Source: an uncultured Candidatus Saccharibacteria bacterium (lineage in GTDB: Bacteria; Patescibacteriota; JAUYIX01; CAYMIK01). From it: DNA of 56,612 nt. The stretch is from positions 1 to 56,612 of the forward strand of contig CAYMIK010000005.1 in NCBI GenBank assembly GCA_964390745.1, in the 5' to 3' direction. The position numbers and the translations under genes were made by a program. The notes beneath the pieces are model-generated. The model was not told the DNA's origin. It saw nothing but the letters and a program-made list of their open reading frames with translations, and searched no databases. This document shows positions 15,848 to 55,055 of this stretch, in pieces (position 1 is the stretch's first letter; each line of letters starts with the position of its first letter).

Positions 15848-15924
15848 TGGCGGAGCGGACGGGATTTGAACCCGCGACCTCGTCCGTGACAGGGACGCGC
15901 TCTAACCAGCTGAGCTACCGCTCC
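15848..15924 (-). tRNA. tRNA-Asp(GTC)
   Basis: GGAGCGG acceptor stem, anticodon arm CGTCC-CTGTCAC-GGACG, TTCAAAT T-loop, encoded CCA. Confidence 0.96.
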
Positions 15925-28551: not shown

Positions 28552-29760
28552 TTATTGAATAACACTTGCTAAGTTATAGATAGGAAGCAGAACAGCCGCA
28601 ATCAAGATAAACACGCCAATTCCAATAAAGACGACAATGACTGGCTCAAGGAGCGTGGTGAGAACTGCAATCGTTCGGTCGATATCAGCGCGATAAAAAT
28701 CAGCCACTTTATCCAAGACGTTATCAATATTTCCCGTTGTCTCCCCCACTGCTACCATTCGCGTGACCATGAGCGGAACATTCTTTCCACCACTTTTTTC
28801 GAGCGCTTGAGAAAGTGGCACACCAGTTTTGACTTCTTCGGCTGCTTCGTTTATGGCAACTTCGAGTACCATGTTTTGCGGGACTTTAGAAGCAATGTGC
28901 AGAGCGTCAACAATAGGAATATCACCCGAGATGAGAGTTGAGAGGTTTCGAGTGAGTCGCGTTACAGCAATTTTGTTAATGAGCGATCCCATAATTGGAA
29001 GGCGCATCTTGTTGTAGTCCCAGCTGTATCGGCCTTCTTCGGTGTGAATATAATAGTTGATAGCGAGGTACACACCAACGAAGATAATAAGGAGCAGCCA
29101 CCAGAAGTTCACAACAAAGTTGGATGCAGCAATAAGGATTCGTGTGGCAAGTGGAAGCTGTGCTCCAAACTGATCAAAGACGCTTTTGAGTTGTGGAACC
29201 ACCCAACCAAGCACATACACACTAATAACAACCAACAAGACAACAACAAAAGCTGGGTAGATCAAGGCGCTGCGTATTGCCTGGCCAAGGTTGTAGTCCT
29301 TTTCGGTTTGTTCGGCAACGCGATTGAGCATTTCAGAAAGCTTACCTGAGGCTTCACCCGAACGAACCATGCTGACAAAGAAGCTCCCAAAAACAGCCGG
29401 AAATTTTCCTAATGCATCCGAGAGTCTAGCACCAGCTTCAACATCTAACACTAAGGCGCGAATAACTTCTCGAAACTGCGGTGTCTCTGTTTGATCGATC
29501 AGAATTCGCAACGCTTGTGTCACAGGAAGTCCCGAAGCAATCATCAAAGAAAACTGTCGTGAAAATACCACAAGTTCTTTTTCATTGATGCGCAGCGAGA
29601 AAGAAATACTCTTCGCCAAAGATCGTTCTTGCCGAAGCGACAAAACAACAAATCCTTGGGATTGGAGCAATCGTATAGCAGCATCCTGGTTCCCCGCTTG
29701 GATGATGCCCATTTTTGTCTCGCCGGCTCTTGTATTTACCTTGTATTGAAATTGTGCCAT
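28552..29760 (-). CDS. pilC: type IV pilus platform protein (PilC/GspF)
   Basis: ELVVFSRQFSLMIASGLP, GEASGKLSEML, VGETTGNIDNVL, LLEPVIVV. Confidence 0.94.
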   Translation of the reverse strand: MAQFQYKVNTRAGETKMGIIQAGNQDAAIRLLQSQGFVVLSLRQERSLAKSISFSLRINEKELVVFSRQFSLMIASGLPVTQALRILIDQTETPQFREVIRALVLDVEAGARLSDALGKFPAVFGSFFVSMVRSGEASGKLSEMLNRVAEQTEKDYNLGQAIRSALIYPAFVVVLLVVISVYVLGWVVPQLKSVFDQFGAQLPLATRILIAASNFVVNFWWLLLIIFVGVYLAINYYIHTEEGRYSWDYNKMRLPIMGSLINKIAVTRLTRNLSTLISGDIPIVDALHIASKVPQNMVLEVAINEAAEEVKTGVPLSQALEKSGGKNVPLMVTRMVAVGETTGNIDNVLDKVADFYRADIDRTIAVLTTLLEPVIVVFIGIGVFILIAAVLLPIYNLASVIQ

Positions 29761-29762
29761 GA

Positions 29763-30836
29763 CTACCCTTGTAATAATGATTCAAATGTTGGAATTTCTT
29801 TGACATGATTAATGGCTTCTTCTTTTGCCACGAGCCCACTTTGAACAAGCTCAGCCAGCGATCGGTCAAATGAAACCATTCCCTCAGAGGCACCCGTTGC
29901 AATCATGTCATCGAGTTGGTAGGTCTTGCCTTCGCGAATAATGTTTTTCACCGCCAGGTTCGACATCATAATTTCACATGCAGGAACCATCGAGTCTTCA
30001 AGCGAAGGAATGAGTTTTTGGGTTACCACTCCCGTAAGTACGGTGGCCAAACGAGTTCGAATCTCCCCTTGCCTGCTGGGTGGATACAGATCCACAATCC
30101 AGTTGATGGTTTCCGAAGCATACTGGGTACCAAGTGTTGCAAAAACGAGGTGACCAGATTCTGCCACCGCGATGGTCTGCTCAATAATTTCCGGGGTATC
30201 CATTTTGCTGACCATAACCACATCAAAGCCGCCACGCTGTACACCCAGGAGCGCATCAAGCGAAGAGTTCACATCAACTCCCACTTCTTGCTGTTCGCAA
30301 AAACTTCGATCATTTTGGAGAACATATTCTATTGGGTGCTCAACCGTGATAATTCGTTTTGCCTGTGTGTGATTGATAAAGTCCAAAAGAGATGCAATAG
30401 TTGTTGACTTGCCACTTCCCTTTGGGCTAACAAACAGAATGAGGCCAGAGGGCTGAGTGGTGAAACTTTTGAGCGTCCCAGGAAGTCGGAGCGAATCAAT
30501 CGATGGAATCACTTTTGGAATATAGCGCATAGCAAGCGAGACCTTCCCCTTTTGGAAGTATGCCGAAATACGAAATCGCGCGATATCTTTGTGGGCGTAA
30601 GCAAAGTCGAGAAATTTTTGTTGATCAAACTTTTGCAGCCGGTCTTGTGGCACCATTGCAATGAGCATGGCACGAATACCATCTGCCGTTTGTACCTGCA
30701 TATCAGTAAGTTCCAAAAGGTCACCATGAATACGAACAACCGGTGGTTTCCCTACCGTTAAATACAGATCTGAGGCGCCTTTTTCTGTCACGGCACCAAA
30801 GAGTTGTTCGAGTTGGAGTTGTGAACTTTCGTACAT
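29763..30836 (-). CDS. pilT: PilT-like retraction ATPase with degenerate catalytic motifs
   Basis: ASDLYL, RFRISAY, SPKGSGKSTT, EHPIE, AESGHLVFATLG, CEIM; Walker B reads VVMVSKM. Confidence 0.85.
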   Translation of the reverse strand: MYESSQLQLEQLFGAVTEKGASDLYLTVGKPPVVRIHGDLLELTDMQVQTADGIRAMLIAMVPQDRLQKFDQQKFLDFAYAHKDIARFRISAYFQKGKVSLAMRYIPKVIPSIDSLRLPGTLKSFTTQPSGLILFVSPKGSGKSTTIASLLDFINHTQAKRIITVEHPIEYVLQNDRSFCEQQEVGVDVNSSLDALLGVQRGGFDVVMVSKMDTPEIIEQTIAVAESGHLVFATLGTQYASETINWIVDLYPPSRQGEIRTRLATVLTGVVTQKLIPSLEDSMVPACEIMMSNLAVKNIIREGKTYQLDDMIATGASEGMVSFDRSLAELVQSGLVAKEEAINHVKEIPTFESLLQG

Positions 30837-30908
30837 TCTTTTTGTTTAAAGTATTCTTGATGGCTGTTTGTATTGAGTTCAGCACAAACGCTGAACCATC
30901 ACGGACAA

Positions 30909-31337
30909 TTATTTCCCGAGAAGTTTCTGGATTTTAGAAACAACTTCCGAAGGCGTAAAGTGCGCTTTAATAAGGTAATCGCTTGCACCAAGGCTCAAGC
31001 CACGATCAACATCATCTTTCTGGCTCAAGTTCGTAAGCAAAATAACTGGAATATTTGCCCAGTCGGCGTTCTTCTTCATTTCCTCGAGAACTTCGAAGCC
31101 TGACTTTTTAGGCATAACAATATCAAGCAAAATGATATCGGGTTTTGGACCTTCTTTGAGAAGTTCTAAAGCTCGTTCGCCATTTTCTGCATGTGCAACA
31201 TCGAACCCCGTAAGTTGGAGCTTCGTTACATACATACTTGAGAGGAATGAGTCGTCCTCAGCAAGAAGTACGCGGATTTTTGCACCAGAAGCCTGTTGTG
31301 GCGCCTGCGGTGCAGCTTGGTTGTTGGCATCTGCCAT
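30909..31337 (-). CDS. stand-alone response regulator receiver protein
   Basis: LAEDD, LDIVMP, LT, LIKAH conserved; start trimmed to MADANNQ at 31337. Confidence 0.92.
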   Translation of the reverse strand: MADANNQAAPQAPQQASGAKIRVLLAEDDSFLSSMYVTKLQLTGFDVAHAENGERALELLKEGPKPDIILLDIVMPKKSGFEVLEEMKKNADWANIPVILLTNLSQKDDVDRGLSLGASDYLIKAHFTPSEVVSKIQKLLGK

Positions 31338-31341
31338 ACAT

Positions 31342-33123
31342 TTATACCGAATTAATGATGAAATTATTATTTTCTTTCGTGATGCGCAGCACTTCTTCAA
31401 GGCTTGTCTTTCCTGCTAACGCCTTCAGAAGTCCATCCTGGAAAAGTGAGATACACTTTTGCTCACGAGCTATTTTTTCAATTTCCTCCTGCGATGGTTT
31501 TTTGGGAATGAGACTCTTCAGTTCTGGACTGAGCGTTATCACTTCGTAGGTTGCGAGTCGTCCTTTGTAGCCTGCGGCACACTTTGAGCAGGCCTTTGGT
31601 CCGTAAAATTCTGGGGTGGTAATGCCAAGCGCCTGGAGCTCTTCCGGAGGAATCTTCTCGATCTCCTTCTCAACCTGTGTTCGCATCGCTGCTGGCAGTT
31701 CGATCTTTTCTTTTGATTCTTCGCACAATGTTCGAACCAGTCGCTGTGCCGCTACGGTATTGGTTGCAGAGGAAATAAGGAACGGTTCAATGCCCATATC
31801 GATCAGTCGAGGAATAGCGCCTGCTGCCGTATTCGTGTGAAGCGTAGAAAGTACGATGTGACCCGTAAGCGACGAATGTATAGCCATTTCGGCGGTTTCC
31901 TGATCTCGAATCTCCCCCACCATGATGCTGTTTGGATCTTGTCGCAAGATAGATCGCAAACCTTTTGCGAAGGTGAAACCAATGTCAGGATTAATTTGGC
32001 TTTGGTTTACGCCCGCAACAAAGTATTCAACCGGGTCTTCCAGTGTTACAACATTTGATCGCTCTTTATTCAAGATAGCAAGTGCAGCATACAATGTCGT
32101 CGTTTTACCTGAGCCAGTTGGGCCTGTCATTAAGAACATACCATAGGGCTGACTCAGCGCGTCAAGAACATCCTTTTGTCGCTTTCCCCACAGACCAAGA
32201 GATTCGAAGTCCATCATTCCCTTGGATTTATCGAGAACGCGCATCACAACCTTTTCAGCATTGTTCACTTCGCTCGATGTGACCGGCATGATAGAAACAC
32301 GGAAGTCGATGTGTTTCCCTACAAAAGTTCCACTAAATCGTCCGTCTTGCGGAAGACGCGATTCGTCGAGCTTTAGATTGGAAAGCACCTTGATACGCGA
32401 AACAACGGGCGACAACAGTTTAACCGGGAGTTTTAAAATTTCCCTGAGCTCACCATCCACTCGATAGCGCACACGAACTTCTGTTCCCAGAGGTTCGATG
32501 TGAATATCGCTGGCATCCTTTTGAATGGCATTTTTTAAAATCGAGGTGACCACTTTGGTAATTGGTGCATTTCGAACCTGGATTTCAATCGATTGATCCT
32601 CTTTGACTCGTTCGGTTTGCTCCTCAGTAGCACTTTCGGTTTGCGATTGAATGATCGCCTCTTTTACCTCTGACTCGATGTCACTGTATTCGGCGTACGC
32701 ATGATCGAAGCTTGATTGACTTATCACGTAGAAAACAAATTCGAGCCCGTTTCTGTTTGCAATAAGCTGCAACGCCTCTTCAGCTTTCAGATCGATAGGA
32801 TCAATGATCCCCAACTTGATGGCCTTCCCGTCACTTTCGAAAGCAATAAACTTGTAGGTTTTTGCAATGCGGCTCGGGATAACGTTGAGCGTTTCTTGCG
32901 GAATACTTGTGCTTGTGAGGTTGATGTACGGAAGACCAAAGAGCGAGGCCTTCATCTCTGCGAGTTCTTCTTCGGTGATTTTCGAAGAGCTCAGCACCGC
33001 CCGGGTAACATCGCCATGGTTCTTTTCGAGAGCTTTTTGGATACTCTTAACCTCAGAAGGTTTTAACTTCTTTCTTTTTGCAATTTCTGCAATCAATGCT
33101 TGGTTAAAAGATTGGTCGGCCAT
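31342..33123 (-). CDS. pilB: type IV pilus assembly ATPase (PilB/GspE)
   Basis: ASDIHIEP, RLPQDGR, GPTGSGKTTT, LEDPVE, LRQDPNSIMVGEIRD, TLHTN, Cys tetrad. Confidence 0.96.
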   Translation of the reverse strand: MADQSFNQALIAEIAKRKKLKPSEVKSIQKALEKNHGDVTRAVLSSSKITEEELAEMKASLFGLPYINLTSTSIPQETLNVIPSRIAKTYKFIAFESDGKAIKLGIIDPIDLKAEEALQLIANRNGLEFVFYVISQSSFDHAYAEYSDIESEVKEAIIQSQTESATEEQTERVKEDQSIEIQVRNAPITKVVTSILKNAIQKDASDIHIEPLGTEVRVRYRVDGELREILKLPVKLLSPVVSRIKVLSNLKLDESRLPQDGRFSGTFVGKHIDFRVSIMPVTSSEVNNAEKVVMRVLDKSKGMMDFESLGLWGKRQKDVLDALSQPYGMFLMTGPTGSGKTTTLYAALAILNKERSNVVTLEDPVEYFVAGVNQSQINPDIGFTFAKGLRSILRQDPNSIMVGEIRDQETAEMAIHSSLTGHIVLSTLHTNTAAGAIPRLIDMGIEPFLISSATNTVAAQRLVRTLCEESKEKIELPAAMRTQVEKEIEKIPPEELQALGITTPEFYGPKACSKCAAGYKGRLATYEVITLSPELKSLIPKKPSQEEIEKIAREQKCISLFQDGLLKALAGKTSLEEVLRITKENNNFIINSV

Positions 33124-33161
33124 GGCTCCTTTTATTCAGTGCAACGAACTTCGTTGTGCGA

Positions 33162-33419
33162 TTAGTATGGTGCGAACGGGTCTTCTCGTCCTACTTGCGT
33201 GCTGTCGGGTGTTGGTGCGTCTCCTGGTTGGTACTGAATATATTTCAAACCCGTATCGTTCAAAGCCGCAGTGTCGATGGCAACACCATTATTGGTGGCA
33301 GCATTTTTTGTGCGAAGTGTTTTGAAAACGTAGTAGCCAAGAGCAAGAATGATAATAACAACAAGCACCGCAACGACTATTGGTATTGTTTTTGAATTTT
33401 TTTGTGCGACGATAGCCAT
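33162..33419 (-). CDS. short single-TM PilP-like protein (85 aa)
   Basis: Start trimmed to MAIVAQK at 33419; one TM; C-terminal GREDPFAPY resembles the PilP R-x-DPF motif; sits after pilO. Confidence 0.65.
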   Translation of the reverse strand: MAIVAQKNSKTIPIVVAVLVVIIILALGYYVFKTLRTKNAATNNGVAIDTAALNDTGLKYIQYQPGDAPTPDSTQVGREDPFAPY

Positions 33420-33423
33420 AGTT

Positions 33424-34026
33424 TTATTGATTAGTGGTTGTATTGGTTGGTGTTGTCGACTCTGATGAAGGAACGGTTGTTTGCGTGAGCGGCTTGTTGA
33501 TCTTGCTGAAGTACGTCGTAAAGGTAATGGAAGAAGCCAGCGTACTTCCGGAAGTGCTAAACGATGTATTTCCCAGGTTGAAGATGCGCTTGTTCTGCTC
33601 CAGTGAACCAATAAGATCATTGAGTTGTTTGTAGTTCCCCGTTGCAACCAGCGTGACGTTCAATGGGAAAATCGTTTTTCCAGCAGCGGCAGAGTCACCT
33701 ACATTGAAGCGGATCGAAGTGATAAGTGCATGAGTAGCCTTCCCCACCGATTCCAGCTGCGCAATAACATCTGCTTCATCGTACGAATCAGGAATGTGTT
33801 CATTGAGGTCAGTGATTTTTTCTTGAGGTGTGCTGCTGTAGTTTTTGATAAGGTCTTTCGTATCAGCAAGCTGTGAAGCTACGTCCTGTTCCTTTTTGCG
33901 GGCATCGTCAAGATTGCTCTTTGAGGTCAACATATCTTGATACGCTGGGCGCGCCAAGAACAACAAGACAACCACAGCTATCGCAACAGAAACGCCGATA
34001 TAGACAAGAGATCGTTCGCGGTTCAT
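33424..34026 (-). CDS. pilO: PilO-like alignment protein
   Basis: N-terminal TM, coiled coil, GNYKQLNDLIGSLEQNKRIF; position after pilN. Confidence 0.8.
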   Translation of the reverse strand: MNRERSLVYIGVSVAIAVVVLLFLARPAYQDMLTSKSNLDDARKKEQDVASQLADTKDLIKNYSSTPQEKITDLNEHIPDSYDEADVIAQLESVGKATHALITSIRFNVGDSAAAGKTIFPLNVTLVATGNYKQLNDLIGSLEQNKRIFNLGNTSFSTSGSTLASSITFTTYFSKINKPLTQTTVPSSESTTPTNTTTNQ

Positions 34027-34628
34027 TATTTTGCCCCCTGCGTCTTAAGTTGAATCGTGTCAGGAAGTTTTGTGAGTACTCCCGGGCGAAGCTCGAGTTG
34101 CAAATCAAAGTTCACCGTTACAATTTGCGTCTTCGCATCGATGTTGTAGGTTATGTTCGATGTTGTCACGTGCAAAATATTTTTGGACTGCTCGAGTGAC
34201 AAAATATTTCGCTCAAGCGCCGTGAGATCGCTCGCGCGGCCTTGCAACTTGATGGTGTTCGATTTAATGTCGCCATTAAATGATGTGTACTGCAAACGTT
34301 TATCTGTTCGCGAAGCAATATCGCTTAAGATGCCCGTCCAATAGACGTGCTTATCAGCGAGCTTTGCCAGGTTATTAAGACGCTCAACGAAGCTGCTTGG
34401 CTCTACTGCCTGGTCTTTGAGGCCATTCAGTTCAGCTTGCTCGGAATCGGCTTTTTCTTGAACAGCAGAAGCTTGGCCATCAAAGAGGAAACTTACCAAG
34501 AAGAATCCAAGATAGACCACCACCGAGAGCCCGATGATTGCGAGCGAGATAACTAAAGCCCGAGGAATTCCGTGTTCCTCTTGCTTCTTACTATCCAACG
34601 CTTGCTTTATAAGGTTGGGATTTGCCAT
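34026..34628 (-). CDS. pilN: PilN-like alignment protein
   Basis: N-terminal TM, coiled coil, IKLQGRASDL; position after pilM. Confidence 0.78.
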   Translation of the reverse strand: MANPNLIKQALDSKKQEEHGIPRALVISLAIIGLSVVVYLGFFLVSFLFDGQASAVQEKADSEQAELNGLKDQAVEPSSFVERLNNLAKLADKHVYWTGILSDIASRTDKRLQYTSFNGDIKSNTIKLQGRASDLTALERNILSLEQSKNILHVTTSNITYNIDAKTQIVTVNFDLQLELRPGVLTKLPDTIQLKTQGAK

Positions 34629-34668
34629 GTATTTTCGTCCTTTGTTTTTATGAGTTTAATATGTTTGT

Positions 34669-35724
34669 TTATTCTCGCATCGCAAGTCCACAGGCGGTGG
34701 CAAACGAAGGAGCTATGTCCATGAGAACTTTTTCGTACTCTTTGGGGTAACTTACTTTGAGCCACGGGTTTCCAATCTCTACAGGAATTTTGAGCACCGC
34801 TTGAAAGTAGTTTCCAAAGTTTCGTAAGCCCGATGCGCCACCTGTCAAGATAACTCTTTCCACTTGCCGTGAGTACTGACCGTTAAACGTATTTACGACT
34901 CGCTGCACTTCATAGATGATTGAGTCCAAAATAGGTTTAATGGCACCTACCATCGGCGCCGAAGAAACACCACCCGGAGTTGCCAAGACCGCCAAATCCA
35001 TATCGTGTTTAAACTGCTCAGCGCGCACCACATCGATCTTCATGCTTCGTGCAATAATACCCGTAAGGTCTTGACCACCCTTATCAATCGTTCGATTCAC
35101 AAAGAGCGCTCCCCCGCTCACGATGCTGACATCCGTTGTCGAAGAACCCATATCTACAATCACCGTGTTCACTTGCGGCTCACGAATCAGTGAACGAGCA
35201 AGTGCAAACGAACCAATCTCAAGCGCATCAAGTGTAAACGATGTTTCCGAAAAGATGTTCGAAAACTTTTCGACGTAGTCCCGGGGCGCAGCAATCAGCA
35301 AGATTCTTTTTCCAACCCGTCCACCACCGTAATCAATATCTTCCACTTCCTTCCAATCAAGCACCACTTCTTCCAGTGGAGCCGGAACATACTTTGCAGC
35401 CTCACTCTGAATCGCAAACGCACGATCTTTTTCTGAAAGTTCTGGAAGATCAACAATTGATGTGAATACAGCAAAGCCTGGCAAACTCGAAACTGCCGTC
35501 TTGGTTTTTACGTTCACCTTTGAAGCAAGATCGCTTAAAGTTTTGGCGATGTTCTGCTCCAACTGTGCACCCGCTGCACGAATAATACTTTGCTGCAACG
35601 GAAATGAACCGAAGGTTTTCAGTTCAAAGTTGCCGCCGTGTTTTTCAAGTTCGACAATTTTTATACTGGAAGCACCGATATCCACGCCAAGGCGCGAGTG
35701 CTTCGAGAATCCAAAGAAGCTCAT
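34669..35724 (-). CDS. pilM: type IV pilus assembly protein PilM
   Basis: LGVDIGASSIKIVEL, VDMGSSTTD, ILTGGASGL, FATACGLAMR actin-like fold. Confidence 0.94.
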   Translation of the reverse strand: MSFFGFSKHSRLGVDIGASSIKIVELEKHGGNFELKTFGSFPLQQSIIRAAGAQLEQNIAKTLSDLASKVNVKTKTAVSSLPGFAVFTSIVDLPELSEKDRAFAIQSEAAKYVPAPLEEVVLDWKEVEDIDYGGGRVGKRILLIAAPRDYVEKFSNIFSETSFTLDALEIGSFALARSLIREPQVNTVIVDMGSSTTDVSIVSGGALFVNRTIDKGGQDLTGIIARSMKIDVVRAEQFKHDMDLAVLATPGGVSSAPMVGAIKPILDSIIYEVQRVVNTFNGQYSRQVERVILTGGASGLRNFGNYFQAVLKIPVEIGNPWLKVSYPKEYEKVLMDIAPSFATACGLAMRE

Positions 35725-35788
35725 GGCGTGTTAATTTTTCCTCCAAATACGCTGCATATTATATCACGAATGCATCTAGATAACAATC

Positions 35789-38617
35789 TTAAAAATCCAA
35801 GTTCCCGATAATTTCGCGCCAGTCCAAAATCTTATCCGTGCTGGTTGTCCCCGATCCCGGATTGAGGCCAAATCTGCCCGATCCATGGATGTCTTCTGAG
35901 GGTTCTGGCTGGTACGCGTCGGAGCCTGGAGGTGGAGGTGTCGTACAGTCCTCTACCGTAACATCGACAACAGTTGTAGCAGTGGGGCCACCTTTGGACG
36001 AAGTCACCCGCAAGCCAAGCTGGAAGGTCTGCGTTCCTACATCATCAACAGCAATATGTACCGGTGCTTGTCCAGAAGGATCATGGAGCGAACCAGAAAC
36101 AGGAAATGCACCGTTGAATGGTGGTGTTGGGCTCCCTGCGGGCACAAACCATTGATATGTATGCGTGTCACCTTGGCCGGCTGGTGGCGCAGATACCGTT
36201 GCATCGAATTGCTTTGAAACAATTGCCCCCGGCTCGCTGGCACAAACCTGTACCGGATCCAAAAGTGCCCTGGTTGGATAATATCCACACGAAACAACTA
36301 AAGAATCCTGATACGTCTGATCTGGACACTGCAAAGGATTATCAAAAGAACCGGTTGCAGAGCTTGGTAAAGATATTCCACACGGTGCATCGTCTGCAAT
36401 CTTTGCATTTGCATATAGCTCGAGGTCATTGTTGGCAACTGGCAGCGCCCCGGTCCACTGGAAGCAATTGGATCCGCAAGAAGGAAGATTGGTTTGTGGG
36501 AAGTAGTTCGCACTCTGAATTCGCAAGAAACCATTGGTGTTGCCTGCAATATTTTCCGTGAGATGGGTCGCCGTTGACACTGTGTCGGGATTGGAATATG
36601 CAGATCGATGTATCCATACTGCGGGGTCTGGCGCCGAATCAAATGTTGCATCCTGCGATGGCTTTGATACGAGATTAAATGTTGGGCTCGATACGGGGCA
36701 AGGATCGCTCGCAGCATTGTACGTTGTGCCATTCACCGGCGAGTAGTAGGTATTGCAGGCTGCGCTCGTTCCACAATCAAAGACTCCTACCTTGTCGATA
36801 TCGAGGTCCCCTGTAAACCACCCACCAACAGCCGCACCCGTTCTAAAACCAATATACGCACTTGGATACGAAGCGACTGTAGTTGACCACGTTGCCTGAA
36901 AACTCGTGGTTTTGTGGAGCCACGAACCAAGCACTGGCCTCAAACCATTTTGAATATTTTTATTTGCAACGCCCGTTTGCTGTGTTCCAAACTCAACTGA
37001 GACCGCCCCGTCACCAGTCCCCAACGGCATGGGGTCAATCCCCGCTCCCGCGCGAAGGTCGTAACATACTTGGTAGTGATGATCCTTGGTTGCGGTGAAT
37101 TGTGCTCCGTGCCAATCGCCATACACCAGACCAAGATCTTTTGAAGGATCAACTGTTTCGTACTGGTTCAGTTGCAATTTAATTCCGGCAGATTTTCCTT
37201 GCGCGCCAGCGGCAGAAAAAGGAGCACCGATGTGTACGGTGTCGCCACGTGCTGGTGATGCACTGTAATCAGTAAGCGCAAAGGACCAATCAGTACATGC
37301 AGGATTTGGCCCGTCGCATCGTCCGTCCGTGGTTAAACCGCCTGAGCCATTTTGGGGTAAGTTGCTTTTTACCTGATCGCCGTGCGTACCACCCGAAATA
37401 TCTACGTTATTCGTAAACACGTAGGTTCCCGCAGGATCATGGAAAACTTTAATTTCACCACCAGCTCCACCACCTCCAGCATCATCGTCATCAGGACAAT
37501 CGAGTCTATCAGTGCAGCTGCTTCCACCATTTCCACCAGCAGCCTTCAGAGCCCCTGTAATGCTCAGGTTTTTTGCAGAAATGAGAATACCACCACCTGC
37601 TCCACCACCACCGGCTGCTTGTTGATAGCCTTCATAATGATCAACAACACAGATGCCGAGGTTTTTGCAGGCGGTTGGGTTTTTATAGATAACCGTATCG
37701 GCTGTGTGGCCAATGTTTGGTGCCGATTGGCCGTTGGCTTGAATCGTCCCTTGGCTCGTAAAATTCGTTGCAAAAAATGAAATGGCGCCACCACCGTTAC
37801 CGCCGTAACATTTTGTGTTGGCAGAATCTTGTTTACAGTATCCGCCACCGCCGCCGCCACCCATACGAACAGCATAATCACCCTGCGCACCCGCAAAGTT
37901 CGCTGCACCACCTGGTTGTCCGCTGTAGTTACTTCCGCCACCACCATTACCGGCGTGCCCACCACCACCTGCTCCATCTGGTGGAACGTAGTATGACTTG
38001 CTGGCGCCACCACCCAAATTATAGGTTGTGTAGGTACAGCCAGGTGCACCGTTTGCACAATAGCCAACACCATCTCCCGCAAAAGGATCTGGCGTTGCAC
38101 GCGTTACGCTGCCACTCGTTGCTATGGTGTGGGTAGCTTCCCCGCCCCTACCTCCAGGGTTTCCGGTTCCGTTGGCATTCACAATCGCGTTGGGTTCAAT
38201 AACCACCGAATTGGCATAAATCTTCACATCACCATTTACCGTAAGCGTTGTTCCCGTTTTTACCGTGAGCGTCCCACTTACCGAATATTCACCAGAGCTA
38301 ATAGAAGCATCCGAAGCGATGGTGTTTGGAAGCGGAAACGGACGCGCCGTTGGCGGTGCATCGTAGGTCAAACCACTTGCTGGGCAATTTCCCGCAACCT
38401 GTCGTGTCGAATCTTGGGTTTCGATACCAAGAACTTTTTCCGCCTGCGGGAAAAATCGTGTCACAGAAGCAATAGGAATCCAACCCATTTTGGCACTCGC
38501 TCCCCCAACAAAGACAAGCGTCAACGCAAAAACGGCAACAGATACAAAAAGCGATCTTCTATTGTGAAGTGTCTGCGGTCCAAATATTCGTACTTTAAGT
38601 TTTTGATGAAATGTCAT
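35789..38617 (-). CDS. large secreted/surface protein (942 aa) with glycine-rich repeats; putative pilus-associated adhesin
   Basis: N-terminal hydrophobic segment, GGGG-rich repeats alternating with beta-strands, many Cys pairs, beta-sandwich-like regions, C-terminal LDWREI. Confidence 0.7.
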   Translation of the reverse strand: MTFHQKLKVRIFGPQTLHNRRSLFVSVAVFALTLVFVGGASAKMGWIPIASVTRFFPQAEKVLGIETQDSTRQVAGNCPASGLTYDAPPTARPFPLPNTIASDASISSGEYSVSGTLTVKTGTTLTVNGDVKIYANSVVIEPNAIVNANGTGNPGGRGGEATHTIATSGSVTRATPDPFAGDGVGYCANGAPGCTYTTYNLGGGASKSYYVPPDGAGGGGHAGNGGGGSNYSGQPGGAANFAGAQGDYAVRMGGGGGGGYCKQDSANTKCYGGNGGGAISFFATNFTSQGTIQANGQSAPNIGHTADTVIYKNPTACKNLGICVVDHYEGYQQAAGGGGAGGGILISAKNLSITGALKAAGGNGGSSCTDRLDCPDDDDAGGGGAGGEIKVFHDPAGTYVFTNNVDISGGTHGDQVKSNLPQNGSGGLTTDGRCDGPNPACTDWSFALTDYSASPARGDTVHIGAPFSAAGAQGKSAGIKLQLNQYETVDPSKDLGLVYGDWHGAQFTATKDHHYQVCYDLRAGAGIDPMPLGTGDGAVSVEFGTQQTGVANKNIQNGLRPVLGSWLHKTTSFQATWSTTVASYPSAYIGFRTGAAVGGWFTGDLDIDKVGVFDCGTSAACNTYYSPVNGTTYNAASDPCPVSSPTFNLVSKPSQDATFDSAPDPAVWIHRSAYSNPDTVSTATHLTENIAGNTNGFLRIQSANYFPQTNLPSCGSNCFQWTGALPVANNDLELYANAKIADDAPCGISLPSSATGSFDNPLQCPDQTYQDSLVVSCGYYPTRALLDPVQVCASEPGAIVSKQFDATVSAPPAGQGDTHTYQWFVPAGSPTPPFNGAFPVSGSLHDPSGQAPVHIAVDDVGTQTFQLGLRVTSSKGGPTATTVVDVTVEDCTTPPPPGSDAYQPEPSEDIHGSGRFGLNPGSGTTSTDKILDWREIIGNLDF

Positions 38618-38637
38618 GGTATTTTGCTACTTGAACG

Positions 38638-40113
38638 TTACGGTGTAACCGGATCTCCCAACCAATAACGATTAAACGCGATATTGGCAGCAGTCAGACT
38701 TCCGTACAAGGAAAGTTTTTTGTAGGTTCGTTCTTGGGCCGTTGAGATCGTTCCTTGCTCAGAGAAAAATGTTCCGGCAAGTCGCCCGACACTTCCACTA
38801 ATGGTGATGTCGCCCTTTTGAACTAATACTCCAAAGTTCGCAAGTTGGTTCAGGCTTGTGGGCGTAGTAGAAAGTCCGTCTTGATACACCAGATTGGACT
38901 CCAGAGTAACATTCGCGTTAGAAGAGACGATAGTTATAGCTCCAGATTCCCCAGCATTTCCATTGCGAAGCTTCAATCCCGAATTGGAAATCGTCACCTG
39001 TGCAGGTGCTCCCGGTGTGGCTGATTCGATATCAATAATTTTTGCTTCACTTGGCAAAATATCGTCTCGCGTAGCTTCGCATCCCACCGTATTTTCTGGA
39101 TTGATCGTTCCGGTGTTGTTACCACTTCCATCATCAACAACAGAAAGATTCACTACATCACCGACGCAGGAATAGTTTGCACGTGCCTCGAGATCCGAAA
39201 ATCGGACCTGGCCAGCAAGCGCCACCGGCGTCGAAAGGTTCACAACTTTCGTGCTATTCACGCCCTTCGTTTTGAAGCTGCTATTATTAGGATTGCAGTC
39301 CCCGGCACCAGAGATGGTTTGAATATTCCCGTTGTACATCGCAACAATATAATCAGCGTTGTAGCTACCATCCGGTGGATTACAGGTCGTAAATGAGTAC
39401 GGCGTTACGCCCGAACCAGACAAGAAACTTGCTTCTCCGTTAATATTGCCACCAGCATAAACATCGCCGCGCTGCGTGGCGACCCATGGGTATCCAAAGA
39501 AAATAGTATCACCGTAGATAGGAGAAAGCGTGTTTGTGCTGGGGTCCCGAAGCCGAACATAGACATTCACTACTTGATGGGTTTGCACGCTATTCGTAAA
39601 CGATGAACCCAAATCGGCTAAGTTGAACTCTGCGCGCTCCCCCGCGGATTCACACGGCGACGAAACAACCGTCTTCCAGCCCGAAGGGATTGGCGAGCTT
39701 AAGTCCTCACTCGTTGCAGCAACTTGGTATTGCGTGTACTTAGTTGATCCCTGGACGGTACCAGAAAAACCCAGCCACACATCTTGCGAGCTCGTATAAA
39801 ACGAATCATCAACGCATTGATCTTGTGGGCTTGGTGTTCGTGAAACGATATGAAAGCCCGGCTCACTCGCTGCTGCTTGCAAAGAAGTATCTGCCACCAC
39901 TGCACCCGCCGTTGCCGTGAGTTTCGCCTGCGTTCGTGGAACAAAAATGGAGCTTCCAAGCACCCGTGCTTTACCGCTGGTATACGTGAGCGGCACAGAG
40001 CCAAAAATCAATACAAAAAGCACGACCCAAAGGGCAACTCGGTTCAATCGTGTAGAAAGCGCAAACGTATGATTCGCACTTCGTATGTTTTTCTGTGTGC
40101 GTATTTGCCGCAC
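38638..40113 (-). CDS. membrane-anchored surface protein (491 aa), beta-rich C-terminus
   Basis: GTG start with GAGG SD, one TM, S/T/N-rich, C-terminal GVLVQKGDITI..LYGSLTAANI. Confidence 0.7.
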   Translation of the reverse strand: MRQIRTQKNIRSANHTFALSTRLNRVALWVVLFVLIFGSVPLTYTSGKARVLGSSIFVPRTQAKLTATAGAVVADTSLQAAASEPGFHIVSRTPSPQDQCVDDSFYTSSQDVWLGFSGTVQGSTKYTQYQVAATSEDLSSPIPSGWKTVVSSPCESAGERAEFNLADLGSSFTNSVQTHQVVNVYVRLRDPSTNTLSPIYGDTIFFGYPWVATQRGDVYAGGNINGEASFLSGSGVTPYSFTTCNPPDGSYNADYIVAMYNGNIQTISGAGDCNPNNSSFKTKGVNSTKVVNLSTPVALAGQVRFSDLEARANYSCVGDVVNLSVVDDGSGNNTGTINPENTVGCEATRDDILPSEAKIIDIESATPGAPAQVTISNSGLKLRNGNAGESGAITIVSSNANVTLESNLVYQDGLSTTPTSLNQLANFGVLVQKGDITISGSVGRLAGTFFSEQGTISTAQERTYKKLSLYGSLTAANIAFNRYWLGDPVTP

Positions 40114-40151
40114 AGGTAGCCTCGTGTGTGTTTGTTTTGAAAAACTTTTGA

Positions 40152-40180
40152 TTGACGCAGCACGATATACGCTCTATAAT
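40152..40180 (+). promoter_or_regulatory. sigma70 promoter for lemA-htpX
   Basis: TTGACG-17-TATAAT. Confidence 0.75.
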
Positions 40181-40211
40181 AAACGTAATCCGTGGCGTTT
40201 TTGATGGCCGA

Positions 40212-40240
40212 ATTATACCATAAACGATTCGTAACATCAA
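40212..40240 (-). promoter_or_regulatory. sigma70 promoter for the pilus operon
   Basis: TTGATG-17-TATAAT with TG extension, minus strand. Confidence 0.7.
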
Positions 40241-40271
40241 TGCTACATATTAACACTGAAAGGAAAAATAT

Positions 40272-40838
40272 ATGGGAAATGTTCTTTGGGTGATATTAGC
40301 CATAGTAGTCGTGCTTGTTTTGTGGGCAATTGCCGTCTATAACGGTCTTATTAAGGGTCGAAATCAGGTTGACGAATCATGGAGCGATATCGATGTTCAG
40401 CTCAAGCGCCGCTATGATTTGATTCCCAACTTGGTAAACACCGTTAAGGGATACGCCGCACACGAAAAAGAAGTGTTTGAGAAAGTTACTCAGGCTCGAA
40501 CAGCTGCCATGGCCGCTGAAGCCAAGGGTGACCTCAAGGGTGTTGCCGAGTCAGAAAACATGCTTTCTGGTGCTTTGAAAAGCTTGTTCGCTGTATCCGA
40601 AAGCTATCCAGAACTCAAGGCAAACCAAAACTTCTTAGAGTTGCAACGAGATTTGACCGACACAGAAGACAAAGTTCAAGCCGCACGACGCTTCTACAAT
40701 GGTAACGTTCGTGACTTCAACACTTCTTTGCAGACATTCCCCCGCAATGTTGTTGCCTCAATGTTTGGATTCAAAGAACGAACCTTCTTTGAAGTTGGAA
40801 GCGAAGCAGAACGAAATAACGTTGAAGTGAAATTCTAG
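40272..40838 (+). CDS. lemA: LemA family protein
   Basis: WSDIDVQLKRRYDLIPNLV, ESYPELKANQNF, ARRFYNGNVRDFN, FPRNVVA. Confidence 0.96.
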   Translation: MGNVLWVILAIVVVLVLWAIAVYNGLIKGRNQVDESWSDIDVQLKRRYDLIPNLVNTVKGYAAHEKEVFEKVTQARTAAMAAEAKGDLKGVAESENMLSGALKSLFAVSESYPELKANQNFLELQRDLTDTEDKVQAARRFYNGNVRDFNTSLQTFPRNVVASMFGFKERTFFEVGSEAERNNVEVKF

Positions 40839-40853
40839 TTTTAGGCAGCATAA

Positions 40854-41050
40854 CGTGAGTGTTTCTCGGGTTTGTTCTTGAAGAAGTTCGCGCAGGAGCT
40901 CTTGAGAAACCCAGGAACCTCACGTTTTTCGAAAACGACGAGCGGCACAGCAAGGGCCTTTCAAAAATGCCTGGCGCAAGCGGCCGGACGGCATTTTTGA
41001 AAGTGTCATGCCGAGCGGTTCTGAAAGAATAAACCCGAGAAACATTCATG
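40854..41050 (+). promoter_or_regulatory. highly structured intergenic element/putative cis-regulatory RNA closing over the htpX start codon
   Basis: 26-bp IR 40854-40879/41025-41050 (3 G.U pairs), inner 14-bp IR 40958-40971/40990-41003. Confidence 0.7.
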
Positions 41051-41986
41051 AATCTCTACCAAAACATCGCAAAAAATAAACGAAGGACAGTGTTCTACAC
41101 TATCATCTTTTTTATCTTTGTCGTGTTTATTGGTTGGTTCTTCGACCAATACTATCAAGCCGGAGGCGCTGGAATCTTTTTAGCGCTGCTCTTTAGCGTC
41201 CCAACCGCACTCACAAGCTACTACGCAAGCGACAAAGTGGCCCTCGCCGTAAACGGCGCCAAAGCCATCGAGCCCGAACAAGGATCTGAAGAAAAACAGC
41301 TCTATCGTTTAGTAGAAAATATTGCCATCACTGCGGGCATCCCCGTGCCAAAGATTTACATTATCCCCGATGAGGCGATGAACGCATTTGCCACCGGACG
41401 AGACCCAAAGCATGCATCCATCGCATTTACATCGGGAATACTAAAGAAACTCGACAAACTGGAGCTTGAGGGAGTAATCGCTCACGAACTTTCGCACGTA
41501 AAGAACTACGACATTCGCTTGTCTACGGTGATTGTCATCTTGGTAGGGCTGATCGCACTCCTCTCTGACTTCTTCATACGATGGAGTTGGTTTGGAGGAC
41601 GCCGAAGAAGCAACGACAACGAAGGTGGCGCTGGCGGAATTCTTATGATCGTTGGAATCATCTTGATCGTTCTCTCCCCTCTCATTGCACAGCTTATTTC
41701 TTTGGCGGTCTCGCGACGCAGAGAATTTCTCGCAGATTCTTCGGGAGCGTTGCTTACGCGTTACCCTGAAGGCCTAGCAAAAGCGCTGCAAAAAATTTCT
41801 CAGGACACCGATCCGCTTGATCATGCCAATAACGCAACCATGCACTTGTACATTGCGAATCCCAAGCCACGAAAGGGCGCTGGAATTGCGAAATTCTTCT
41901 CAACACACCCACCTATCGAAGAGCGCATTCAGGCACTGATGGGAATGGACATAGAGAAGTTTGAGAAGGAATATCTCGAGAAATAG
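41048..41986 (+). CDS. htpX: M48 zinc metalloprotease HtpX
   Basis: NAFATGR, HELSH zinc motif, SRRREFLAD, STHPPIEERI. Confidence 0.95.
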   Translation: MNLYQNIAKNKRRTVFYTIIFFIFVVFIGWFFDQYYQAGGAGIFLALLFSVPTALTSYYASDKVALAVNGAKAIEPEQGSEEKQLYRLVENIAITAGIPVPKIYIIPDEAMNAFATGRDPKHASIAFTSGILKKLDKLELEGVIAHELSHVKNYDIRLSTVIVILVGLIALLSDFFIRWSWFGGRRRSNDNEGGAGGILMIVGIILIVLSPLIAQLISLAVSRRREFLADSSGALLTRYPEGLAKALQKISQDTDPLDHANNATMHLYIANPKPRKGAGIAKFFSTHPPIEERIQALMGMDIEKFEKEYLEK

Positions 41987-52977: not shown

Positions 52978-53589
52978 ATGCCTACTGAGAATGCGACCAA
53001 AGAAGCGCCAAATCAAGAGGTTGCACTAACAAAGAAAAAGCCATGGTGGCAGAACTGTTGGGTTATAGGTGTTGGTATTTTTCTTTTAATGGGCATTTCG
53101 GGGCTCATATCCCAATCATATAAAGTAGCAACAGATAAAGTTGAAAATAACACAACGCAAGTTACTACGCCTCAAGCTCAAAATACTGAGACAGAAGACG
53201 AGAAAGCGGCACGTCTAGCGGATGAAGAAAAATACAAACTCACGTATTCGCTATACAAAACCGGCCACAATAACCGTGTCGAAAACTTTGAGTTCCTCAT
53301 GAAAGGGACACCAAGGAATGACGCCGCAATTTCAGATTTAGTGAAAAAAGCAAAGAGTGAAAACTGTACTCGTTCTTGTAACGTCTACCTGTATAATGAC
53401 GAAGAAGCGGCCAATCTCGACTATATAAATAGTTTTACTTCAGAAGTCGATGGAACTAAATACGAACAATGGATGAAAGACCATTACTCCTTTATCGCAG
53501 ACCATCTAGTTGCATCGATTGAATTCACAGGTGACAAGGTAAATATGTACCCATACAAAGACACCTCTCTATATAACAAATATAAATAG
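52978..53589 (+). CDS. single-TM membrane protein with extracytoplasmic domain
   Basis: KKKPWWQNCWVIGVGIFLLMGISG TM, Thr/Gln-rich linker, globular C-terminus. Confidence 0.75.
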   Translation: MPTENATKEAPNQEVALTKKKPWWQNCWVIGVGIFLLMGISGLISQSYKVATDKVENNTTQVTTPQAQNTETEDEKAARLADEEKYKLTYSLYKTGHNNRVENFEFLMKGTPRNDAAISDLVKKAKSENCTRSCNVYLYNDEEAANLDYINSFTSEVDGTKYEQWMKDHYSFIADHLVASIEFTGDKVNMYPYKDTSLYNKYK

Positions 53590-53735: not shown

Positions 53736-55055
53736 ATGGCGAAGCTGACCTTAACCTTAACTGAGATGCAAGATTTAGCCAAAACTCGTGGTGGCGAGTG
53801 TTTGTCTTCTGTTTACGTTAATTGCGACATGAAGCTTAAATGGAAATGCGCAAAAGGTCATATTTGGACAGCGTCTGCGACCAGTGTTAAGCATAATGGT
53901 TCGTGGTGTTACGAATGCTCAAGGTCAAGAAAATATACCCTGAGCGATATGCAAAAATTAGCGTCCAAGCACAAAGGGAAGTGCCTATCAACAGAATATA
54001 TCAATCGGCACAGTAAACTTGAATGGGCCTGCGAGAAAGGTCACACATGGAGTACTGCCCCTAAATATATTCTAGATGGAAGTTGGTGTCCAAAGTGCGT
54101 CCATGAGAGTTTACTTAAGACGAAAGAGGATATGGTTAAACTTGCTAGTAAAAATGGCGGCATTTTGCTTTCTACAAAATACATAAATGCCAAAACTAAG
54201 CTCAAATGGCAATGCAAGAATGGTCACATTTGGGAGACCAATCCTGACAATGTGAAAAAAGGTTCATGGTGCCCATTTTGCAATAAAAATTACCTTAGTT
54301 TAGAAATATGTAGAAAGATGGCAGAAAGTAGGGACGGTAAGTTTCTTAGCCAAACATACAAAAACCAACTAACACCATACTTATGGCAATGTAAACATGG
54401 TCATACATGGAAGACAACTACCATGGTAATTAGACGAGGAGCTTGGTGCCCAGACTGTGCTAGAACTGAGATGGGGCTCAATTCAAGAAAATATCTCATT
54501 TCGGACTTGCAAGTATACGCGAAAAAGAAAGGTGGCCTCCTGTTATCAAGGCAGTACACTTTAGCAAAAATTAAATACGATTGGAAATGTAAAAAAGGGC
54601 ACACATGGAAAACTGCGTGGTGTCAGATGAAAATAACCGAGTCGTGGTGCCCAGTGTGCAATGACAGTAAAATGGAAACTTATTGTCGACAAATACTCGA
54701 ACGTAAACTCAAAACGCTGTTTCCAAAAAAAAGACCAGATTGGTTGCGCAATGACCGTGGCTACCTCTTAGAACTTGATGGCTACTCAGAAAAACTCGCG
54801 CTAGCCTTTGAGTACAATGGTGAACAACATGATAAGCGTATTGTCTATTTTCACAAAACAGAGAATGCACTCCTTACTCAAAAGAAAAATGACTACATCA
54901 AAATTCTGACTTGTCTAAATAAGAGAGTGTATCTTATTACTATTCCGTTCTTCGTACCAGCTAATAAACTTGAGATGTTTATTCAGGCGCATCTAAATAA
55001 TTACAACAAACTCAAAAACGACCAGGCGCTATACGATGCTTGGTTTAAAATATAG
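53736..55055 (+). CDS. five-repeat zinc-ribbon protein with C-terminal PD-(D/E)XK (Vsr-like) endonuclease domain
   Basis: 5 x W-x-C-x2-GH-x-W...WCx2C repeats; LELDGY..LAFEYNGEQH. Confidence 0.8.
   Translation: MAKLTLTLTEMQDLAKTRGGECLSSVYVNCDMKLKWKCAKGHIWTASATSVKHNGSWCYECSRSRKYTLSDMQKLASKHKGKCLSTEYINRHSKLEWACEKGHTWSTAPKYILDGSWCPKCVHESLLKTKEDMVKLASKNGGILLSTKYINAKTKLKWQCKNGHIWETNPDNVKKGSWCPFCNKNYLSLEICRKMAESRDGKFLSQTYKNQLTPYLWQCKHGHTWKTTTMVIRRGAWCPDCARTEMGLNSRKYLISDLQVYAKKKGGLLLSRQYTLAKIKYDWKCKKGHTWKTAWCQMKITESWCPVCNDSKMETYCRQILERKLKTLFPKKRPDWLRNDRGYLLELDGYSEKLALAFEYNGEQHDKRIVYFHKTENALLTQKKNDYIKILTCLNKRVYLITIPFFVPANKLEMFIQAHLNNYNKLKNDQALYDAWFKI

Follow-up and report, generated by a model that had tools for sequence, protein, structure and literature searches.

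The Correia (NEMIS) elements of Neisseria and the ERIC elements of enterobacteria are intergenic, consist of a 50–150 bp core flanked by terminal repeats of some 26 bp in inverted orientation, and are co-transcribed with their neighbours; the long RNA hairpins that they form can be cut by RNase III (Correia) or RNase E (ERIC) and alter the expression of neighbouring genes, in an orientation-dependent manner for ERIC (PMC2229807, PMC2649163). Here we describe an element of comparable layout in a 56,612-nt stretch of DNA from an uncultured Candidatus Saccharibacteria bacterium (contig CAYMIK010000005.1 of assembly GCA_964390745.1, positions 1 to 56,612; hereafter, the window), where it occupies the spacer between lemA and htpX and includes the htpX start codon. 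Among described systems, Correia and ERIC come closest to it in anatomy and in presumed RNA behaviour. However, they are multi-copy and mobile and generate TA target duplications, whereas the htpX element is single-copy, bound to its locus and vertically conserved, has no duplication and has the start codon of its gene within an arm.

In three known systems, namely the MS2 maturation gene, the hok mRNA with its metastable hairpins and rpmI-rplT coupling, the translation start is closed at equilibrium by a long-distance helix, with a local hairpin forming first in the nascent RNA. The htpX element is like them in logic, since occlusion of the start by a long-range helix is predicted to follow a co-transcriptional interval, but its helix is far longer (26 bp, near perfect), the behaviour is here a prediction, and the element inverts in DNA, which none of these systems is known to do. 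It also resembles fimS, hin and the Bacteroides invertons in being a short segment, bounded by inverted repeats, that lies just 5′ of a gene and occurs in both orientations (between lineages). Only this first hallmark of an inverton was found: unlike invertons, the element has no nearby invertase or recognisable inner promoter, its orientation is fixed within strains that were sampled many times, and its repeats are not conserved between relatives. Our literature search retrieved no paper linking invertons with Patescibacteria.

The inner hairpin of the element is similar to bidirectional intrinsic terminators (A-tract, GC-rich stem-loop and T-tract, 3′ of lemA), but it lies between co-directional genes and within about 150 further nt of conserved palindromic structure. 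As to DNA behaviour, the element resembles the hairpin-loop flip-flop inversions of plastids, where the loop is found as the exact reverse complement in close relatives, recurrently and homoplasiously, and which are treated as neutral (PMC6342102, PMC12928735). It differs from these in that one flip lies within another, the 18-nt loop inside a segment of about 145 bp, and in its position, a conserved bacterial spacer at a start codon. Judging by titles and abstracts, none of the retrieved papers in which lemA, htpX and intergenic occur together seems to treat such a spacer. As modelled here, the element combines known kinds, a structured operon spacer and an inverted-repeat flip-flop; all functional statements below are computational.

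The palindrome at the htpX start

The closest HtpX homologues place the contig in the Patescibacteria (candidate phyla radiation). The features of the locus are as follows, in window coordinates; L numbers denote relatives listed in the next section, and X1–X6 denote six metagenomic contigs described there.

40152..40180, + strand: sigma70-like promoter 5′ of lemA, TTGACG-17-TATAAT, kept in L002, L003 and L131
40272..40838, + strand: lemA, 188 aa, Pfam LemA (E 2e-62)
40854..40879, + strand: 5′ arm (left inverted repeat), half of the 26-bp closing helix
40882..40894, + strand: 5′ strands of the middle helices (AGAA, GUUCG, GCA), within the conserved block GAAGAAGCTC...GGAGCTCTTGA
40904..40926, + strand: X, a degenerate third copy of the arm and direct repeat of the 3′ arm, sequence GAGAAACCCAGGAACCTCACGTT
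40958..41003: inner hairpin, a perfect 14-bp stem whose A5/T5 tracts enclose a GC-rich apex
40972..40989: inner-hairpin loop, 18 nt, exact reverse complement in X1–X6 and L132
40997..41024, + strand: most conserved block, TTGAAAGTGTCATGCCGAGCGGTTCTGA, 3′ strands of the middle helices, with a weak extracytoplasmic function (ECF)-like motif, TGAAAG-N16-TCTGA
41025..41050, + strand: 3′ arm (right inverted repeat), its last three bases being the htpX ATG (41048-41050)
41048..41986, + strand: htpX, 312 aa, Peptidase_M48 of HtpX type, start backed by the conserved N-terminus

The long hairpin over the htpX start consists of the two inverted repeats of a nested palindrome, some 195 bp in length, which is conserved, is present as one copy and fills the lemA–htpX spacer. 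In its closing helix, 40854-40879 (CGTGAGTGTTTCTCGGGTTTGTTCTT) is complementary to 41025-41050 (AAGAATAAACCCGAGAAACATTCATG) over 26 bp, AUG included, and the deviations are three, all G.U on the + strand. A GA/GA internal loop (40880-81/41023-24) is followed by AGAA/TTCT (40882-85/41019-22); altogether, 4+5+3 more pairs lie past this loop, with small hairpins further in and a perfect inner stem of 14 bp (40958-71/40990-41003). The closing helix with its wobbles, the tandem GA/GA loop with its 4 bp and the inner stem had all been reported in the initial annotation, and each of them was confirmed. The core between the arms measures 145 nt. Within the window the arm is present at two places only (matches in 0/100 shuffles), and the htpX arms are the strongest short-range inverted repeat across the 56.6 kb.

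When the + strand of 40840-41065 was folded with RNAfold, the minimum free energy was −96.4 kcal/mol, vs −60.8 ± 4.6 kcal/mol in 200 dinucleotide shuffles (z −7.75, 0/200 as good), so that the proposed non-random structure of about 200 nt over the htpX AUG holds in this genome. The − strand gave −84.3 kcal/mol (z −5.6). With 26 bp and three G.U pairs, plus 4+5 bp past the internal loop, the duplex is of the length expected of an RNase III processing site, for which some 20 bp of nearly perfect RNA duplex are the minimum. The inner hairpin has the layout of a bidirectional intrinsic terminator, that is, a GC-rich stem-loop with a T-run and a mirrored A-run: a terminator scan matched the − strand at 40981-40969, followed by ATTTTTGAAA, and the + strand is symmetric (GGCATTTTTG). 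Rfam returned no family on either strand in a permissive search of 40500-41400 (up to E=10), and only chance matches and tRNAs when the whole window was searched at gathering thresholds.

The true start of htpX is the ATG at 41048, because the N-terminus MNLYQNIAKNKRR is conserved in all orthologues; a start elsewhere, which the initial annotation had allowed for, was not borne out. A promoter scan found no sigma70-like promoter inside the lemA–htpX spacer and a good one upstream of lemA (40152..40180), the probable source of a transcript crossing the element. The region 5′ of lemA (40114-40271) holds back-to-back sigma70-like promoters, one on the + strand (40152-80) and one on the − strand (40240-12, TTGATG-17-TATAAT with a TG extension); both, together with the block GATTATACCAT...GTAACATCAA, are kept in L002, L003 and L131.

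Relatives, copy number and orientation

As orthologous loci we took the contigs encoding the closest HtpX homologues, all of which are ordered lemA–spacer–htpX. They are listed with the identity of their HtpX to that of the window.

L002: 91%
L131, L132, L133/134 and L135: members of the HtpX 90% cluster
L003-5: 87%
L006-7: 81%
L008: 70%
L009-10: 69%
L136: 66%
L137: 64%
L138: 60%

The spacer is about 200–224 nt long in every relative whose HtpX is at least 81% identical, and the palindromic element was shown to be lineage-specific, confined to this small clade of Patescibacteria. The spacer of L008 (L008:2904-3000, 97 nt) has in the same place one plain, terminator-like hairpin (A-tract/stem/T-tract), and that of L136 (L136:1398-1440, ~40 nt) one plain hairpin of the same make-up, ending 9 nt before the ATG. 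In L009 (L009:2781-3000) there is a non-homologous palindrome whose 20-bp closing helix ends about 40 nt before the ATG, and in L137 (L137:1241-1420) an unrelated one with a 16-bp hairpin; the spacer of L138 is 9 nt, which implies an operon. The lemA–htpX spacer seems prone to palindrome growth. From these spacers, and from the promoter, which lies upstream of lemA with none in the spacer, we conclude that lemA and htpX ancestrally formed an operon, or nearly so, and were separated by a terminator-like hairpin, and that the ~195-nt element is a clade-specific elaboration.

Two observations on individual relatives may be added. The HtpX record at L132:281-1306 (GCA_964573485.1, CAZNJS010000014.1) is annotated as 341 aa, with a start 30 codons too far upstream, inside the element; by the conserved N-terminus, the true start is L132:371. 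The element of L131 (L131:1298-1500) and L133 (L133:1297-1500) is 78% identical to that of L006 (L006:522-730) and 53–61% identical to the others, while the HtpX of L131/L133 is 92% identical to those of the window and L002 and 82% to that of L006. This discordance suggests recombination at or near the spacer.

The initial annotation had offered, as one possibility, a miniature inverted-repeat transposable element (MITE)-like insertion. Terminal inverted repeats of 26 bp, a core of ~145 bp and an intergenic, co-transcribable position, as in Correia and ERIC (PMC2229807, PMC2649163), would agree with mobility, as would the occurrence of both orientations. However, sequence and profile searches found no second copy in the 56.6-kb contig, and four metagenome assemblies (organism at 3-5x depth) showed, at ≥80% likeness, this one locus only, with no unlike flanks. 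A profile hidden Markov model of the element, built from eight orientation-corrected elements, matched only lemA–htpX spacers in 913 kb of DNA and gave no match in L008, in L009 or elsewhere in the window. There is no target-site duplication either, the flanks being TAA/.../AAT (...CATAA/CGTG...CATG/AATCT, slashes marking the element ends) without a direct repeat. Furthermore, the right repeat holds the conserved htpX start codon, and the element is older than synonymous-site saturation, yet always at the same locus. We accordingly give a mobile insertion next to no likelihood. A GTDB scan with the arm returned one match, a coding-sequence coincidence (VFLGFIL) in a Saccharibacteria contig, which has no bearing on copy number since the species is not in that collection; a metagenome scan with a 16-base conserved-block motif, too unspecific for the purpose, gave more than 120 chance matches, none with the element.

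What the initial annotation missed is that the arms of the htpX closing helix are, to judge from the relatives, the inverted repeats of a DNA segment flipped repeatedly in evolution. Aligned in gene orientation the spacers look unrelated, and those of L002 and L006 match the window only as the reverse complement; the local alignment of the window with L006 scores 86 reversed and 49 forward, the forward score coming from the palindromic inner hairpin only. The + orientation (A) is found in the window, L132 and L003-5, and the − orientation (B) in L002, L135, L131, L133, L134, L006 and L007. The whole element is inverted in five of the eight orthologous loci, with + in three lineages and − in three. 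On the HtpX tree, A and B genomes are intermingled. In none of 300 bootstrap replicates does either orientation form a monophyletic group, and L132 (A) groups with L002/L135 (B) at 89%. Nor is B monophyletic in the similarity matrix of the elements themselves. This distribution shows that the whole segment, bounded by the 26-bp repeats, inverted independently two or more times as the clade diverged. The orientations are presumably not assembly artefacts, because the repeats are shorter than assembly k-mers.

The inner 14-bp repeats, in turn, flank a loop that flipped between near-identical strains. Six contigs from wastewater/sludge runs (X1–X6) have essentially identical flanks, with 0–1 other differences around the element, and differ from the window at twelve positions within 40972-40989, where the 18-nt loop is the exact reverse complement, GTCCGGCCGCTTGCGCCA. 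L132 has this same loop sequence in the same orientation as X1–X6, and therefore it is the window that carries the recently flipped loop. The outer segment has the window orientation in all six samples (consensus contigs, 2-5x depth); seven further runs (X7–X13) gave no coverage of the element.

These flips raise the question of a programmed inverton, in which the 26-bp repeats would be recombination sites and the segment would carry a directional signal, for instance a promoter in TGAAAG-N16-TCTGA (40998-41024), pointing toward htpX in A and away from it, antisense to lemA, in B. Both orientations do occur at the same locus in relatives, with at least two independent flips; the interior is kept with fixed polarity whatever the flanks, and the nested loop flip shows a recombinationally active locus. 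The most conserved block, 25-50 nt upstream of the ATG in A, resembles ECF promoters, and htpX is an envelope-stress gene. The likeness, GAAA-N16-TCTGA, is to the sigmaE/sigmaW consensus sequences, and we treat it as a lead only.

However, no recombinase domain was found among the 25 open reading frames (ORFs) scanned, which include all neighbours within 5 kb. Every resampled strain keeps one orientation (A in the window with X1–X6 and in L003-5; B in L006/7, L131/133/134 and L002/135), and flipping must therefore be slow; the sole mixed case is L132 (A) vs L002/L135 (B), at 93–94% HtpX identity. Recombinase sites are conserved, whereas the arms vary greatly in sequence from one relative to another, and the element has no inner sigma70 promoter. 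The ECF-like motif is absent upstream of htpX in relatives without the element, and it occurs once in the window vs 0.9 times expected by chance (a count on which we also rejected an ECF-type promoter regulon). A programmed inverton is, in our estimate, unlikely. Because no recombinase lies nearby, orientation is stable within resampled strains and the arms are not conserved between relatives, the inversions are more readily seen as by-products of the repeats, the likely cause being recombination or replication template switching between them.

Selection, strand bias and predicted occlusion of the start

Fourfold-degenerate sites of lemA and htpX are saturated between lineages (33–41% identity). 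The orientation-corrected element retains 54–73% identity (mean 59%), vs 38% (maximum 42%) in shuffled controls aligned likewise. Invariant columns fall in four regions, namely GAAGAAGCTC...GGAGCTCTTGA, GCGAC, the inner-hairpin A/T tracts and TGCCNGANCGNTTCNGA; the invariant blocks include GGAGCT, TGCCG, AAAA and TTTT, and the A and T tracts are unchanged in 8/8 orthologues in either orientation. According to RNAalifold, 31 of the 53 consensus pairs have compensatory changes. Given a mean identity of 59% while fourfold sites are saturated, together with the invariant blocks and the compensatory pairs, these alignments indicate that the element is under selection. The arms are its fastest-changing part, yet they are complementary within each genome, a covariation that selection on the RNA could explain, as could homogenisation of the repeats in the DNA.

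Two further candidates were tried and rejected. The likeness of GCCGAGCGGTT to a tRNA-Ser D-arm is no better than in shuffles (p 0.41), and ARAGORN finds nothing; a small protein was discarded since the 57-codon ORF at 40859-41032 and the other frames are unconserved, with frames and stops differing in every orthologue.

The same alignments bear on a neutral or selfish palindrome, i.e., a terminator hairpin grown by replication template switching (quasi-palindrome correction) with no role beyond that of the original terminator. Template switching keeps arms complementary, makes third copies like X, and flips loops and segments; here the arms change fast but in concert and the third copy tracks them, inversions of the loop and of the whole segment occur, and in this spacer L009 and L137 have palindromes of no relation to the element, and L008 and L136 simple terminators. 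The mismatches of the B genomes, moreover, follow the C-over-G bias of the sense strand. We nonetheless consider this explanation improbable: the invariant interior blocks, with 59% identity at synonymous saturation, point to purifying selection on sequence, beyond complementarity; the mismatches of the A genomes are G.U or absent, counter to the local compositional bias; and the element persists in every sampled lineage of the clade.

The initial annotation had taken the strand-biased wobbles as a sign of RNA-level selection, and this did not hold up. Across genomes, the top strand of the element (the + strand of the window) has about 27 G.U cells vs 4 A.C cells. In the five B genomes among the eight orthologues, this strand is antisense to lemA–htpX, and the mRNA has C.A mismatches in place of those wobbles; the G.U bias is therefore no general mark of mRNA selection. 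Minimum free energies in B genomes are −70 to −85 kcal/mol for the sense and −90 to −117 kcal/mol for the antisense strand, and in A genomes −100 to −108 and −87 to −112 kcal/mol, respectively. In 7/8 genomes the sense strand of lemA and htpX is rich in C at third codon positions (GC skew −0.15 to −0.31; about −0.02 in L006). The C.A mismatches of the B genomes follow this background, whereas the G.U-only or perfect helices of the A genomes oppose it. That the wobble polarity comes solely from a strand bias of replication or transcription was rejected, since such a bias fits the B genomes and fails in the A genomes. We find it plausible that the closing helix is constrained as RNA in A; in B this constraint would be relaxed.

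Alternatively, the polarity might betray an independent small RNA gene on the top strand, transcribed whichever way the element lies. G.U pairs are on that strand in nearly all genomes, and it folds 12–35 kcal/mol better than its complement in 6/8 genomes, including all inverted ones. Such a gene is very unlikely, however, as the genomes share no promoter for it (the 5′ arm of the top strand is preceded by the end of lemA in A and by the beginning of htpX in B) and Rfam has no match, and the polarity is otherwise explained by G.U tolerance in A and by the C-rich sense-strand bias in B.

An RNA thermometer, as proposed in the initial annotation, would agree with the paired start region and with htpX being a heat-shock gene in other bacteria. 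The region is indeed sequestered in the window, where the probability of being unpaired over −20..+3 was 0.00–0.02 at 20, 37 and 50 °C (0.00 for −20..−1 and 0.01 for the AUG at 37 °C). However, a thermometer helix should be only marginally stable and open at physiological temperatures, and this one is predicted to stay closed from 20 to 50 °C; with 26+4+5 bp and a total of −94 to −100 kcal/mol, it is far too stable. No ROSE, fourU or other thermometer of Rfam was matched, and sequestration of the start is not conserved in orthologues, as these unpaired probabilities for the 20 nt before the AUG at 37 °C illustrate.

Window: 0.00 (also at 20 and 50 °C)
L003: 0.02
L002: 0.10
L006: 0.43
L008: 0.53
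L009: 0.77

A separate run with different flanks gave 0.12 for L132, 0.23 for L131/L133 and 0.29 for L006. We attach hardly any credence to a thermometer. Ribosome coupling from lemA, the other proposed trigger, is conceivable but found no support: in this genome the helix begins 15 nt past the stop codon, which would place it beyond the reach of a terminating ribosome.

The initial annotation had further noted an alternative pairing of the 5′ arm near 40919-40926, and here its existence was confirmed while its extent was revised. AACGTGAG (40852-59) is exactly complementary to CTCACGTT (40919-26), but the pairing is far longer than the 8 bp seen at first: the 5′ arm pairs with X (40904-40926) over about 20–30 bp, with a free energy of about −35 kcal/mol (0/300 shuffles as good), and the resulting local hairpin is predicted to span 40852-40926 in the nascent transcript. 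L132 has arms of different sequence and its own matching third copy, with the same statistics (−35 kcal/mol, 0/300 shuffles). In L003 the pairing is weaker, and the B genomes have none. This covarying pairing in L132 is what a cis-acting RNA switch would show, and to that extent a switch is supported.

Folding of 5′-truncated transcripts from six genomes gave a local hairpin of −32 to −37 kcal/mol at 90 nt, except in L006 (−27 kcal/mol). The long-range helix becomes the minimum only once the 3′ arm is added, and in L006 it never does. The barrier from the open to the closed state was estimated at 8–17 kcal/mol, a model value which suggests that the refolding takes seconds or longer.

A proposed kinetic gate and its implications

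We tentatively favour, as a possibility somewhat short of even, an intergenic lemA–htpX structure built around a bidirectional terminator-like hairpin, which would gate htpX translation kinetically, would be a likely RNase III substrate, and would owe its occasional DNA inversions to its repeats. On this model, lemA and htpX would be read from the lemA promoter, and the inner hairpin would stop part of the transcripts. In the read-through RNA, the first partner of the 5′ arm would be the nearby X, and for about seconds the htpX AUG would stay accessible; the 3′ arm would then take the place of X in a closing duplex of 26–30 bp, which would occlude the AUG and be long enough for RNase III. The output of htpX would thus be held below that of lemA and its translation limited to young transcripts, with no temperature sensing. 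In support of this, the lemA-proximal 5′ arm is predicted to fold into the local hairpin before the 3′ arm exists in 6/6 nascent transcripts.

Several points weigh against kinetic gating. That the two genes are co-transcribed, that transcripts end at the inner hairpin, that RNase III cuts the duplex and that translation is gated are all inferences. The RNA model fits the genomes of A orientation much better than those of B, where the helix on the mRNA strand is the weaker one by the free energies above and contains C.A mismatches, and where X is unrecognisable. The arms evolve fast and in concert, and DNA-level homogenisation would have them do likewise, so that their covariation does not cleanly testify to selection on the RNA. 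The interior blocks are conserved in sequence whichever way the element lies, and a purely RNA-level role in the mRNA leaves this unexplained. Finally, the AUG is not buried in L006, nor in L008 and L009, both of which are without the element.

A variant that would join the two levels is that a heritable DNA flip, made without a recombinase, sets the state of the RNA gate: A, with its switch of 5′ arm, X and 3′ arm, would lock the AUG in a 26-bp helix tolerant of G.U after a short co-transcriptional interval, while B, with its C.A mismatches and no X, would be constitutively open; or else the flip would aim an ECF-type promoter at or away from htpX. We regard this as quite unlikely, a shade below the inverton.

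As to the surroundings of the locus, 28552-40113 is a type IV pilus-like cluster with PilM, a PilO-like protein, a T2SSE ATPase and a T2SSF platform protein, followed by two large proteins without a Pfam match (35789-38617, 942 aa, glycine-rich; 38638-40113, 491 aa), both of which are syntenic with lemA in relatives. Two other inverted repeats were seen in the window. One of 18 nt (15833-15850/15928-15945, 94% complementary) flanks tRNA-Asp (15848-15924, minus strand), where it would lengthen the acceptor stem of the precursor and may be a processing helix. The other, of 32 nt (53488-53519/53703-53734, 75%, with a 183-nt interior), spans the end of ORF 52978-53589 and stops just 5′ of ORF 53736-55055, a layout that recalls the htpX case.

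The locus also calls for caution with similar ones. Long "RNA helices" in bacterial spacers can equally be inverted repeats at the DNA level, and the customary signs of selection on RNA, namely covariation and a strand bias of G.U pairs, can be imitated or turned round by inversion and compositional bias; for annotation, the early start of one public HtpX record inside the element is a further warning. Patescibacteria have tiny genomes and few recognisable regulators, and the control of their stress genes is almost undescribed. The htpX element offers a concrete, testable example of cis-regulation in this group: a conserved, single-copy structured spacer with start occlusion, a covarying alternative hairpin and repeated flips. 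If a gate in the RNA or a promoter were in fact set by the flip, a membrane-stress protease would be under the control of a DNA inversion in the regulator-poor, reduced genomes of Patescibacteria.

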